Source: a virus
Lineage: Duplodnaviria; Caudoviricetes
Virus record (IMG/VR): IMGVR_UViG_3300031998_000010
Length of the DNA stretch: 64,000 nucleotides
Reading direction: 5' to 3' (one strand)
Shown: positions 3,018 to 5,461 of the stretch, one piece after another
Numbering within the stretch: position 1 is the first letter of the stretch
Layout: every line of letters starts with the position of its first letter
Translations under genes and position numbers: made by a program
Notes under the pieces: model-generated
Databases searched by the model: none
What the model saw: the letters and a program-made list of their open reading frames with translations, nothing else
What the model was told of the DNA's origin: nothing

Positions 3018-3058
3018 GGGAGGCTCAACCTCCCTTGTCGGAGTATTTCCGAGTTCCC
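3018..3058 (-). ncRNA. two-hairpin motif copy 1 (GGGAAC-stem-CAA-GGAGG TTGAG CCTCC)
   Basis: second copy at 3301-3349 with compensatory changes in the first stem. Confidence 0.55.
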
Positions 3059-3260
3059 TCTATTTCATTTGTATACCGCAAATATGAGGTGAATGGATTA
3101 TTGCAATTCTCCAATGCGGTTTTGTTACGCAAGATTGTCATCTCTTTATTTCCTAGCACCGTAACATGTACTGTGTATCTTCCCTTATCGAAGTAAGATA
3201 TAAGTACGCCTCATTGTCGTTGAAGGTACGTCTCGTTGTGACATGAGGTGAGATGACCTC

Positions 3261-3298
3261 TGGTGATAGGTTTTTAATAAGCTACCTATCAAACTTAT
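3261..3298 (-). ncRNA. NCCA-ended H-type pseudoknot, copy A
   Basis: ATAAG TTT GATAGGT AG CTTAT TAAAA ACCTATC ACCA. Confidence 0.75.
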
Positions 3299-3300
3299 CT

Positions 3301-3349
3301 GGAGGCTCAACCTCCTTTGTTAGAGTTATCAGGTATTCTCTAAGTTCCC
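3301..3349 (-). ncRNA. two-hairpin motif copy 2
   Basis: GGGAAC TTAGAG..CTCTAA CAA AGGAGG TTGAG CCTCC. Confidence 0.55.
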
Positions 3350-3547
3350 GCTACCCAAACCTGATTAGCACAAGGACGGTGTTAGGCTGTGAAAACGGTG
3401 GGTGACTAATCCTTTTGGCATTTAGGAAACCGTGACTCCCTTTTATTCATACTCTTTGTTTTACAAGGCGATGCCTACCTTTAGCACTATATCGATGCCA
3501 CCCGCTGAAGTTTCGCAGTCACGCAAGGTATTCAGAATATACCTTTT

Positions 3548-3662
3548 TGGTGAAGAAGGATAGGATTTGCACCTATCAGCGATAACATTCCTAGCCTGAC
3601 TCAACCTCATTGTGAGTAGTTATCATTACAGGATAACCTGTCTGCTATTCCAGCACTTCTTC
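3548..3662 (-). ncRNA. tRNA-like RNA (Tyr-type GTA anticodon arm, ~42-nt variable region, 6-bp T stem)
   Basis: acceptor GAAGAAG/CTTCTTC+ACCA; D arm CTG..CAG; TTATC-CTGTAAT-GATAA; T arm GATAGG-TGCAAAT-CCTATC; 115 nt. Confidence 0.7.
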
Positions 3663-3776
3663 ATATAACAGTTTTCATATTGAAAACTTCGGCTTTACCT
3701 ATAAAAGTCACACCCTCGACGCGGAGTGTACGGAATTTCTTATTGAAATGTCTAAAGTCACGTCTATATGACGATT

Positions 3777-3927
3777 TGGTGAAGTAGAGAGGATTCGAAC
3801 CTCTATGTCCTTGATATTGCACCTGCACCCCCAAGAGTCGAACTTGGAGATAGCCGAACTCGAATCGACTCTCACTCAGACTCGTTACTACCGTTCACTT
3901 AGCATTCACCCACTCTGCCACTACTTC
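3777..3927 (-). ncRNA. tRNA-like RNA with two extra internal T-loop hairpins
   Basis: acceptor GAAGTAG/CTACTTC+ACCA; D arm GCA GAGTGGGTGAA TGC; T arm AGAGG-TTCGAAT-CCTCT; 151 nt; no canonical anticodon arm. Confidence 0.7.
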
Positions 3928-4088
3928 ATATAATGCAGATTTGTTTATCGTAAACCTCTTAGGTCACGTTCACCCGTATGAATACTGTTAGAAGTTCTGC
4001 TTCTCCTAGGTACTGCCGTTATTTCGTGTGCTATACCGTATCTCCACGCTAAGATTTTTCTAGAAGAGGTACTTAGGATTAACCTCAT

Positions 4089-4162
4089 TGGCAAGAACAC
4101 AAGGATTTGAACCCTGACTAGCGGTTTTGGAGACCGATGTGCTACCGTTACACCATGTCCTT
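4089..4162 (-). tRNA. trnW: tRNA-Trp (CCA)
   Basis: 74-nt cloverleaf; acceptor AAGGACA/TGTTCTT, anticodon loop CT-CCA-AA, T loop TTCAAAT, encoded 3' GCCA. Confidence 0.92.
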
Positions 4163-4350
4163 GTATTTGCAAAGATTGCTTTGGCGTTGCTTATAAAATA
4201 ATCAGAACCCTAGGCATACGATTATTTTGGTCAGATGTCTTTGCGGTCATCTCAGTAGATTAGAGTTCTACCATCTCGATTTCCTTGCTTTCGGAGACTG
4301 AAATCAACTCCGCTTGTGTATTTAGCCGAGGAACACAAGAAAAACCTTAT

Positions 4351-4447
4351 TGGTGAAGTAGGTTAGGACTCGAACCTAACAGCTTTCGGATAGTTTTCCG
4401 TCATAATAATTATGACCACCTCGCGTCTACCTTTGCGCCACTACTCC
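4351..4447 (-). ncRNA. tRNA-like RNA (Leu/Tyr-type D arm, non-canonical anticodon domain)
   Basis: GGAGTAG/CTACTTC+ACCA; TGGCGCAAAGGTAGACGCG; T arm GTTAGG-TTCGAGT-CCTAAC; 97 nt. Confidence 0.7.
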
Positions 4448-4553
4448 ATATTTTAGTATAACCAAGCCATCTCCCAACAGTTATACTGTACTCCGCACCG
4501 TCCGATTTCTACAACCTCGGTCAAGGGTTTTGACTAGACGGAGTGTCCCAATT

Positions 4554-4649
4554 TGTGAAGTAGGTTAGGATTTGAACCTAACTTAGATATAAATATCCCA
4601 TCCAAATTCTATAAGAATCCGACTGCGTATGCCATTCCGCCACTACTTC
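4554..4649 (-). ncRNA. tRNA-like RNA (Leu-type D arm, elongated anticodon helix)
   Basis: GAAGTAG/CTACTTC+ACA; TGGCGGAATGGCATACGCA; T arm GTTAGG-TTCAAAT-CCTAAC. Confidence 0.68.
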
Positions 4650-4820
4650 ATATCTAATGTGAGTGTGGAGAATCCCCCGAAGTCATCTGCCTCTTCGTAT
4701 TTCCATGTCATTAGGTAGCACTCACAACTACCTGACACTCTAACGGCGAGTGACTACCGCCCTACTGCTCGACATAATCTGCTAAAGAGATTAGCCTTTG
4801 CGCTAACGCAGTATAGGAAT

Positions 4821-4905
4821 TGGCAAGATGGTTCAAGCGTCAGGGCGCGAACCCTCCGTTACTCTCATTTAAGTTAGTACGAACTTGAACGAACTAACCC
4901 ATCTT
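4821..4905 (-). ncRNA. acceptor-stem + GCCA RNA with two internal hairpins
   Basis: AAGATGG/CCATCTT 7-bp stem + GCCA; internal GTTAG..CTAAC and AGGG-TTCGCG-CCCT. Confidence 0.6.
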
Positions 4906-4942
4906 TGGTAATAGGTTTTAAAGAGATACCTATATAAACTCT
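4906..4942 (-). ncRNA. NCCA-ended pseudoknot, copy B
   Basis: AGAG TTTAT ATAGGT AT CTCT TTAAA ACCTAT T ACCA. Confidence 0.65.
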
Positions 4943-5033
4943 TGGTGGGAGTGGCTTATAGTCATATTTGCAAACCCTTGTTTCTCCAAATATTCGTATG
5001 ATATCCTACGAGATATTCAGATTGACTACTCCC
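4943..5033 (-). ncRNA. acceptor-stem + ACCA RNA
   Basis: GGGAGT/ACTCCC + ACCA; begins directly after the CCA of pseudoknot copy C. Confidence 0.55.
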
Positions 5034-5071
5034 TGGTGATAGGTTTTTAGACAAGAACCTACCAAACTTGC
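5034..5071 (-). ncRNA. NCCA-ended pseudoknot, copy C
   Basis: GCAAG TTT GGTAGGTT CTTGT CTAAA AACCTATC ACCA. Confidence 0.75.
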
Positions 5072-5187
5072 GTAGACAATGAAGCAACTATCACTCTACG
5101 GCGGCTCATATTCATTTATATAGCACTCCGAATCTCTTAATAAAGATTAACCTCGTCGGGTTGGTTGCATAGCCATCCGAGTGCTTT

Positions 5188-5223
5188 TGGTGATAAGTTT
5201 TTGAAGAGAACCTACCAAACTCT
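5188..5223 (-). ncRNA. NCCA-ended pseudoknot, copy D
   Basis: AGAG TTT GGTAGGTT CTCT TCAAA AACTTATC ACCA. Confidence 0.75.
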
Positions 5224-5285
5224 ATTCAAGGCACGTTGTGTTTCACTTGCTTTTATATTTTATGTATAATTGCTGTATGTGCCTT

Positions 5286-5323
5286 TGGCGATAGATTTTT
5301 AATAAGAATCTACCAAACTTACT
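5286..5323 (-). ncRNA. NCCA-ended pseudoknot, copy E
   Basis: AGTAAG TTT GGTAGATT CTTATT AAA AATCTATC GCCA. Confidence 0.75.
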
Positions 5324-5331
5324 ATTAAATT

Positions 5332-5340
5332 ATCAAGGTT
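5332..5340 (-). promoter_or_regulatory. AACCTT-class (late-type) promoter heading the RNA array
   Basis: AACCTTGAT about 8 nt upstream of pseudoknot copy E; same core recurs upstream of structural genes. Confidence 0.55.
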
Positions 5341-5343
5341 CAC

Positions 5344-5461
5344 ATATAACCGCCAACCCTCAAATCAGAAGATACCAATATCTGTATGTGGTGACATTTC
5401 AAGCGATAAGGCTATATATTGGCTATATCCACACCCCTAATTTGAGGGGTGGCGGTTACAT
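5344..5461 (-). ncRNA. putative ~120-nt structured RNA
   Basis: 24-bp terminal stem (one mismatch, G.U pairs valid on minus strand) starting just after AATCGTTATA at 5466-5475. Confidence 0.55.

Follow-up and report, generated by a model that had tools for sequence, protein, structure and literature searches.

Mimicry of tRNA in which the anticodon region is replaced is known from single cases, among them tmRNA, Y RNAs and the phage T4 RNA named RNAC. tmRNA, which is processed by RNase P, joins a tRNA-like acceptor and T domain to a large insert that takes the place of the anticodon arm, and it also occurs in phages. Here we describe a group of RNA elements in which cargoes of at least six kinds, conserved and interchangeable, are borne by one tRNA-like shell. 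Four members lie in a stretch of 64,000 nucleotides from the virus record IMGVR_UViG_3300031998_000010 (Caudoviricetes); this whole stretch is called the window below. The explanation that we favour, with a probability of about 0.72, is that each of the four elements encodes a non-decoding RNA of tRNA shape, that these RNAs belong to a phage-specific family and that host tRNA-processing enzymes cut them from a 2.4-kb array.

The bacterial Y RNA YrlA is a non-coding RNA that mimics the acceptor, T and D region of tRNA and is found in some phages (PMC4201824). T4 RNAC and RNAD (species 1 and 2 RNAs) are small stable RNAs from a phage tRNA cluster whose role is unknown (PMC3014915, PMC9697503). 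GOLLD and ROOL are structured non-coding RNAs of phages and prophages that lie beside tRNA genes and whose function is unknown, ROOL having first come from cow rumen (PMC5737381). Allo-tRNAs and the irregular tRNAs of polycistrons are class-II-like, have an acceptor branch other than 7/5 (base pairs in the acceptor and T stems) and occur in metagenomes and phages; some are translationally inactive, and a regulatory role has been proposed for these (PMC5389517, PMC7609411). A branch of 13 base pairs is given for tRNA-Sec alone in a review of non-canonical tRNAs (PMC7609411). Finally, in the engineered tRNA scaffold of Ponchon and Dardel a foreign structured RNA replaces the anticodon arm, and the tRNA body provides RNase P processing, defined ends and stability (PMC3753655). 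Neither a 7/6 tRNA-like family nor the natural occurrence of tRNA scaffolds in phages is described in the searchable literature, and the phage family presented here is apparently undescribed.

Four shells with a common body and unrelated middles

The four elements reported in a preliminary description of this DNA are all present, and all lie on the minus strand; the last of them, shell D, has ACAA as its 3′ tail and so reaches 4553. Their anatomy is as follows.

3548..3662, minus strand: shell A, 115 nt, type A; 93.7 bits with model R1
Parts of shell A, minus strand: acceptor 3662-3656/3558-3552; D arm 3653-3638; middle 3637-3578; 6-bp T arm 3577-3559 with loop UGCAAAU; ACCA 3551-3548
3777..3927, minus strand: shell B, 151 nt, type B; 36.7 bits with the Rfam tRNA model, with an 88-nt insert; 35.1 bits with R1, untrained
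Parts of shell B, minus strand: acceptor 3927-3921/3787-3781; D arm 3918-3902; 5-bp T arm 3804-3788; ACCA 3780-3777
4351..4447, minus strand: shell C, 97 nt; no orthologue of its middle found
Parts of shell C, minus strand: acceptor 4447-4441/4361-4355; D arm 4438-4423; middle 4422-4381; 6-bp T arm 4380-4362; ACCA 4354-4351
4553..4649, minus strand: shell D, 97 nt; called Ile-tat by ARAGORN; no orthologue of its middle found
Parts of shell D, minus strand: acceptor 4649-4643/4563-4557; D arm 4640-4625; middle 4624-4583; 6-bp T arm 4582-4564; ACAA 4556-4553

As described earlier, the elements share an ATAT leader, the acceptor G(A/G)AG(T/A)AG / CT(A/T)CTTC, a T loop and the discriminator A. They also have in common U8-G9 and a D stem of 3 bp with a loop of 10-11 nt, and CCA is encoded by A, B and C, with CAA in D. 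All four thus display the acceptor and T features of a canonical tRNA, namely a 7-bp acceptor, a discriminator, a D arm and a T loop with G53-C61 and U54-A58. The T stem has six base pairs in A (GATAGG/CCTATC) and in C and D (GTTAGG/CCTAAC), which gives a 13-bp, 7/6 acceptor-T helix; B, with a T stem of 5 bp, is the only one with the 12-bp, 7/5 arrangement. The D arm had been assigned to class II, of Leu/Tyr type. It is of class II in all four, but less Leu-like in A than in B, C and D, since A departs from the canonical elbow (it has neither G18G19 nor U55, its D loop containing no GG and its T loop reading UGC). The middles, of 60 (A), 97 (B), 42 (C) and 42 nt (D), are mutually unrelated, as had been noted.

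A pattern combining the T loop with the acceptor gave 2 matches against 0.00 expected, so that chance does not account for the resemblance. Standard tRNA finders miss or mislabel the shells, which matters for annotation: among the shells of the window ARAGORN called only D, as tRNA-Ile with UAU, and the Rfam tRNA model reported only B, skipping an insert of 88 nt, with no match to A, C or D even at an E-value of 10. The fold-energy z scores of the shells are -1.4 (A), -1.1 (C) and -2.9 (D), so thermodynamics alone is a weak guide here.

The shell is conserved among related phages

Relatives were gathered by pattern scans and by look-ups through two small neighbouring proteins in IMG/VR, JGI, ENA and the Logan gut assemblies, and 41 shells from 19 gut-metagenome phage contigs were tabulated. 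Names with L and a number (L125, L202 and so on) denote the other stretches compared, and the prefix w (wA, wB) denotes the copy in the window. Two search patterns were discarded: a loose pattern for the acceptor only returned more than 118 stretches of IMG/VR, among which L044 alone was real, and a 16-mer from the cargo of B returned 49 stretches, of which only L125 and L130 were real.

To assess covariation, the 16 shells with a 6-bp T stem were aligned and compared with 500 shuffles and with controls in which the pairing partner was slid by 1-3 columns. Standard pairs occupy 99.6% of the cells of this alignment, and 14 of the 16 pairs show changes on both sides. None of the 500 shuffles was as high on any measure, and sliding the partner left only 35-46% pairing. 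The sixth pair of the T stem is GC in 13 shells, AU in two and GU in one. The alignment thus indicates that the 7/6 geometry, with its 13-bp acceptor-T helix, is under selection and is kept by compensatory change. A covariance model built from the shells with a 6-bp T stem finds shell B, on which it was not trained, at 35 bits (E 1e-5) and scores untrained relatives at 53-103 bits; elsewhere in the 64 kb it matches only the true tRNA-Trp, at 15 bits. From the covariation, the model matches and the clusters of the relatives together, it follows that the shell as such is not a decaying pseudogene.

Many positions are shared across the 41 shells: U8-G9 occurs in 38, a U directly before the T stem in 39, A58 in 40, a tail that starts with A73 in 39 and a 6-bp T stem in 31, and G53-C61, U54 and C56 are likewise kept family-wide. 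Among the 37 D loops that could be parsed, A14 is invariant, A14-A15 occurs in 29 and A21 in 33. The shells are 87-195 nt long; ACCA is encoded in 28 of the 41 and no CCA is encoded in 11. D loops without GG go with a change of U55 to G in the T loop (20/3 versus 5/10, Fisher p 0.0013), and this tie between loss of GG and a UGC T loop is the pattern expected of a real elbow contact between G18 and U55. Conservation of the leader (U)UAUAU/G, where the slash marks the boundary with the shell, extends to 26-28 of 30 shells, and the true tRNAs of these clusters have AU-rich leaders of a similar kind. Leader and tail together are built like a substrate of RNase P that ends in the 3′ end of a tRNA, which would make the shells candidates for processing.

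The acceptor reads GAAGUAG in 28 of the 41 shells. This is conservation beyond what pairing needs, and it probably reflects a partner that recognizes the sequence. When 185,579 prokaryote genomes were scanned for the T loop together with the 3′ strand of the acceptor, only chance matches and one phage-type tRNA-Tyr were found. Since no tRNA with the acceptor of the shells was found in these genomes, the shell is specific to phages. Within a phage genome the family is limited to one RNA cluster with 1-6 copies: a complete relative of 200 kb has four shells in a single cluster, and a complete relative of 171 kb has one.

Conserved modules occupy the anticodon region

By similarity, the middles sort into at least six recurring types that are found in different contigs. 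Two of the types occur in the window.

3578..3637, minus strand: type-A cargo; invariant CCUGU within a linker; helix GAUAAC/GUUAUC; hairpin ACUCA../..UGAGU, which covaries and whose tip varies in length; invariant GUCAGGCUAGGAA
3805..3901, minus strand: type-B cargo; a single strand GAACGGUAGUAAYGA, helix P3 3881-3877/3811-3807, hairpin H1 3868-3854, hairpin H2 3851-3827, and conserved GUGCAGGUGCAAUAUC

Type B, the type resolved best, is represented by wB, L125B, L130B, L185c, L207c and L213c. The D arm is followed by the conserved strand, by the 5-bp helix P3 enclosing two hairpins, by GUGCAGGUGCAAUAUC and, after 2 nt, by the T arm. Both hairpins have 7-nt loops with T-loop sequences (UUCGAGU, UUCGACU). 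In five sequences, 97.6% of the cells of the type-B cargo are paired, with compensatory change in 16 of 33 pairs.

Type A comprises wA, L201s, L188b, L210a, L125c, L130c, L187f and L213a, and its helix GAUAAC/GUUAUC is intact in all seven aligned sequences. In the window copy an alternative is an anticodon-like hairpin, GUUAUC-CUGUAAU-GAUAAC, which would display GUA on a stem of 5-6 bp at the position of the anticodon loop of tRNA-Tyr. Among the relatives this stem has a G-A mismatch in several and is broken in the most divergent, L187f; L130c has a loop of 6 nt, and C stands at position 37 in L125c, L188b and L210a. Shell A was for a time considered to be a tRNA-Tyr with a giant variable arm, an idea that was dropped because L187f shows that the stem is not conserved, and a consensus hairpin proposed by RNAalifold for type A was contradicted by the covariation of the D stem. 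We regard the Tyr-like loop of A as a relic or a recognition element rather than as an anticodon in use.

The middle of C consists of a 7-bp hairpin that starts 6 nt past the D stem and has a loop of 3 nt or of an A33 type, plus a small hairpin. That of D has a hairpin of 7-9 bp with the loop CUUAUAG, offset by 2 nt from the D stem, and again a small hairpin. In minimum-energy folds the ‘anticodon’ hairpins of both close to 3-nt loops. No orthologue of either middle was found among about 30 related loci. The earlier view of natural tRNA scaffolds displaying variable cargo accordingly holds for the shell and for the modules of A and B, which are conserved and covary in other phages; in C and D the support extends no further than the shell, and ‘cargo’ is an assumption there.

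No cargo type has a conserved anticodon arm of canonical form and placement (5 bp with a 7-nt loop, U33, a purine at 37, 1 nt after the D stem). B has no such arm, and in type A it is present in the window copy but is not conserved among the relatives. The proposal that these RNAs do not decode is thus very probably correct.

Type E has five members, all outside the window, and separate contigs contain types F, G and H as well. At 4528-4722 of L210, a type-G shell of 195 nt has a hairpin of about 40 nt within its D loop, so the D loop tolerates inserts as well. Type-B cargo is found on 7/5 shells and, in L213c, on a shell whose T stem and acceptor strand are separated by one additional base. 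L202 and L203 have a single shell with a further kind of middle, flanked by the sequence that lies upstream of D and by the sequence that lies downstream of A in the window; a single cassette there replaces D, C, tRNA-Trp, spacer, B and A, with break points in the shared shell ends. Contigs from other gut samples contain joints at which the 5′ end of one shell runs into the 3′ end of a different shell. Recombination between conserved ends is the simplest account of a constant shell with a swapped middle.

The surrounding phage and its RNA array

The window is part of a phage contig of 193,797 bp from a bovine gut metagenome. It contains a gp23-type capsid gene, and its minus strand carries nearly all of its genes. 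No close cultured relative was found; the best matches of the capsid protein, in myoviruses of Bacillus, Streptococcus and Listeria, are 25-27% identical. The shells lie within a non-coding region that also contains a true tRNA.

3030..5390, minus strand: non-coding RNA array holding the shells; no credible ORF of at least 60 aa; inter-shell spacers conserved in related phages
4089..4162, minus strand: true tRNA-Trp(CCA) inside the array; 58.9 bits with Rfam; AU-rich leader of the shell type; CCA encoded

In this array spacers alternate with the shells, the one true tRNA and hairpins that end in ACCA, and some spacers are conserved in relatives beyond the shells themselves. The spacer at 3928-4088 (minus strand, about 160 nt), between tRNA-Trp and shell B, is 92.7% identical to its counterpart in L125, versus 81% for B, and includes a 50-nt block that is invariant in three phages. 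It begins directly after a CCA end, stops at the UAUAU leader of the following shell and has no Rfam match; it is probably an RNA in its own right. Downstream of shell A, the segment 3369-3547 (minus strand) is 83% identical to L125 and 80% to L202. An exact contig of 184 nt from an RNA library covers this segment, the nearby 3302-3386 being present at a depth of 125 in another, and we consider the segment a candidate structured RNA.

A repeat of about 36 nt occurs in five copies on the minus strand (3258-3296, 4903-4940, 5031-5069, 5185-5222 and 5283-5321). Each is a 7-bp hairpin followed by ACCA and resembles a tRNA minihelix; copies are also present in L044, L125, L130 and L200-L205. A 90-nt block at 4819-4909 (minus strand) is 98-99% identical in L200-L205, with flanks at only 80-87%, which suggests another strongly constrained RNA of the array. 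In the RNA clusters of relatives, ARAGORN reports further irregular tRNAs, at 2896-2976 of L125 (a 4-nt ‘anticodon’, tttc) and 2200-2272 of L182 (2 nt, cg), and TnpB-type (OrfB_IS605) genes lie in or beside the clusters of two relatives (L211 3604-4731; L213 1-596).

Adjoining the array, at 2541-2762 on the minus strand, is a protein of 73 aa whose relatives in gut metagenomes form 92 clusters at 56-96% identity. It occurs on contigs of up to 220 kb, belongs to no Pfam family and can serve as a marker of the clade. A neighbouring ORF of 89 aa has no relatives and so offered no anchor for further look-ups. Searches for antisense targets of the four RNAs within the 64-kb window gave only chance 9-13-mers. 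Contigs from RNA libraries (two metatranscriptome runs) match parts of the array exactly, for example 4488-4638 and 3348-3531, at a depth of 2-6.

Interpretation and alternative explanations

Our reading of the four elements as non-decoding, tRNA-shaped RNAs starts from a selected shell structure with 7/6 geometry and from A and B modules that are conserved and covary, all of which rests on sequence comparison. What we infer beyond this concerns how the RNAs are processed, how stable they are, whether they are charged and what the cargo does. The shell keeps the class-II, tRNA-Leu-like parts that build the acceptor-T helix and the elbow (G1-C72, A73, usually CCA, U8, A14, A15, A21, U48, G53-C61, U54-A58 and C56), and an alternative structured module would occupy the anticodon and variable region. 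The array would be transcribed from 5390 to 3030 as one or a few long precursors that include tRNA-Trp; host RNase P would cleave at UAUAU/G, and host 3′-end enzymes would trim or repair the CCA end. As in the engineered tRNA scaffold (PMC3753655), the shell would supply the module with defined ends, an L-shaped, nuclease-resistant fold and stability, while the module would carry the specific activity. The conserved shell ends would act as recombination points, through which modules could be gained, lost and swapped among phages.

Several observations weigh against this reading. The sequences are interrelated and many come from one habitat, so that the shuffle statistics overstate independence. 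The middles of C and D fold like shuffles (z -0.08 and -1.0), have no orthologues and could belong to young or decaying copies. A pure scaffold role leaves the conservation of the acceptor sequence, GAAGUAG, unexplained. Finally, the contigs from RNA libraries cover the array only partially and at low depth; carry-over of DNA could account for them, and RNA ends cannot be read from contigs.

Of the alternatives, the one that survives best, though we consider it to have a minority chance, is that the shells are aminoacylated carriers: host leucyl-tRNA synthetase (LeuRS) would charge them without their decoding, and they would feed non-ribosomal transfer or titrate LeuRS or EF-Tu. It had been argued earlier that bacterial LeuRS relies on A73 and the elbow rather than on the anticodon. 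As established knowledge this is sound: E. coli tRNA-Leu requires A73 and the tertiary pairs that join the D loop to the T loop, but neither the anticodon nor the variable arm, and charging persists in a minimal tRNA-Leu that lacks both the anticodon arm and the variable arm (PMC9976931). At the sequence level B, C and D have the set of A73, A14, A15-U48, G18G19, U54-A58, G18-U55 and G19-C56, including U55 and C56, and the argument can be applied to them; A, with neither G18G19 nor U55, falls outside it. Leucylation of B, C and D is therefore possible. Consistent with this, when the shell model is applied to true tRNAs, those for Leu rank top (33-36 bits). However, about 40% of the shells, A included, break the Leu determinants through G55, the absence of GG or both, and 11 of 41 encode no CCA. 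The rules applied are those of E. coli. Furthermore, the two complete relatives encode no CCA-adding enzyme (PolyA_pol), no class-I synthetase (PF00133, PF00579), no RtcB and no TROVE protein, so the partners would be host enzymes.

Somewhat less probable is that the shells, with the ACCA-ended hairpins, are decoys or sponges that soak up host factors acting on acceptor ends, elbows or anticodon loops. Candidates for such factors are defence toxins that cleave tRNA or modify CCA, and tRNA-modifying enzymes. Phage tRNAs are known to counter defences that target tRNA (PMC10264068, PMC11464382). Several copies per genome, an acceptor end with conserved sequence, A73-CCA and the minihelix-like ACCA-ended repeats of the array would all fit this role, as would the invariant CCUGU and the Tyr-like loop in most members of type A and the two extra T-loop hairpins that type B displays. 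The distinct conserved cargo types, on the other hand, exceed the needs of a simple sponge. A decoy role would be a specific function with the same anatomy and is compatible with the scaffold reading.

We think it improbable that the shells are punctuation only, that is, signals for RNase P and 3′ processing that free conserved spacer RNAs, as mitochondrial tRNAs do. The conserved spacers, some of them (3928-4088) better conserved than the shells, and their alternation with shells, the true tRNA and ACCA-ended hairpins would be expected under this explanation. A processing signal, however, needs neither a covarying cargo of 60-100 nt nor an acceptor conserved in sequence.

It is very doubtful that the shells are odd decoding tRNAs, with A reading Tyr codons (GUA), D reading AUA (UAU) and C acting as an ochre-type suppressor (UUA). 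ARAGORN does call D as Ile(tat), wA presents CUGUAAU at the canonical place, and no other tRNA-Tyr was seen in the clusters. Yet the type-A stem is broken in L187f, with a 6-nt loop in L130c and C37 in L125c, L188b and L210a; D has its 7-bp stem displaced by 2 nt, the loop of C either carries A33 or is of 3 nt, and an anticodon arm is missing from B altogether. Under the standard code the long ORFs of the window stay open, so that no suppressor is called for, and the Rfam tRNA model is silent on A, C and D even at an E-value of 10.

Pseudogenes, or intron-interrupted tRNA genes whose inserts are spliced out, which the preliminary description had itself named as possible escapes, can hardly be upheld: although C and D are without orthologues and their middles without significant fold, the alignment across related phages shows that compensatory change keeps every shell helix, acceptor and T pairing included, the A and B cargoes are conserved and covary, inserts of 40-100 nt are far below the size of self-splicing introns, no Rfam intron family was matched at E up to 10, B without its cargo would have no anticodon arm, and the contig joints connect different shells rather than exon ends. 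Contigs from the two RNA libraries show no exon-exon joint, although contigs alone cannot exclude one.

A bolder extension of the favoured reading, offered tentatively because we regard it as rather unlikely in full, is that a clade of gut phages runs a modular plug-in system, in which one 13-bp, 7/6 chassis serves to express and exchange a library of structured RNAs. The RNAs would be processed by the host, perhaps leucylated and non-decoding, every module would bind or disable a host factor of its own, such as a tRNA-targeting defence protein, and the ends would be recombination sites that shuffle modules among phages.

Comparison with known systems

A link between the 13-bp helix and tRNA-Sec, drawn earlier, did not survive, since it is numerical only and the shells have none of the other features of that tRNA. 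In tRNA-Sec the 13 bp are arranged as 8/5 or 9/4, with a 6-bp D stem, a 4-nt D loop, UCA and G73 (PMC7609411), whereas the shells have 7/6, a 3-bp D stem, a D loop of 10-11 nt, A73 and no UCA loop. Allo-tRNAs have 8/4 or 9/3 branches (12 bp) and a normal anticodon arm (PMC5389517); in the shells the branch is 7/6 or 7/5 and the arm is replaced.

tmRNA, which is also present in L127, differs in its G3-U70 alanine identity, the absence of a D stem, its tag frame and pseudoknots and its length of 260-400 nt. The shells have A3-U70, a D stem, no tag frame and 87-195 nt. Neither ARAGORN nor Rfam finds a tmRNA in the window, where the only match is a chance one of 13.7 bits to permuted tmRNA. In YrlA the termini form a Ro-binding helix, the tRNA-like part is internal and an Rsr (TROVE) gene is linked, unlike in the shells; the window has no Rfam match to it, and no TROVE gene occurs in the two complete relatives. 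GOLLD and ROOL lack a tRNA shell, each being a single RNA of 580-800 nt, and neither matches the window.

By context, T4 RNAC and RNAD are the nearest precedent, but they are not homologous to the shells. They share no sequence or architecture with them, are single copies and form no modular family; with the shell model RNAC scores 14.1 bits and RNAD is not matched. In phage T4 (L212, 1909-2047), the 3′ two-thirds of RNAC can form an acceptor-like stem of 8 bp (ACGGAACG/CGUUUCGU) with a canonical T arm and an ACAA end.

The closest match in its likely way of working is the engineered tRNA scaffold. That scaffold is man-made and has a 7/5 body; the shells are natural and mostly 7/6, carry at least six cargo types and would be processed as described above. 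They sit, moreover, in multi-kilobase arrays of further RNAs in large rumen phages. If our reading is correct, they would give the tRNA scaffold of RNA engineering a precedent in nature, the 7/6 helix would join the few known non-canonical acceptor branches, and the family would provide a testable entry into the use of non-coding RNA by large phages, possibly including counter-defence. Compared with the systems above, the shells would thus represent a new, modular variant of the tRNA-mimic theme, one that comparative data support well as a selected RNA structure.

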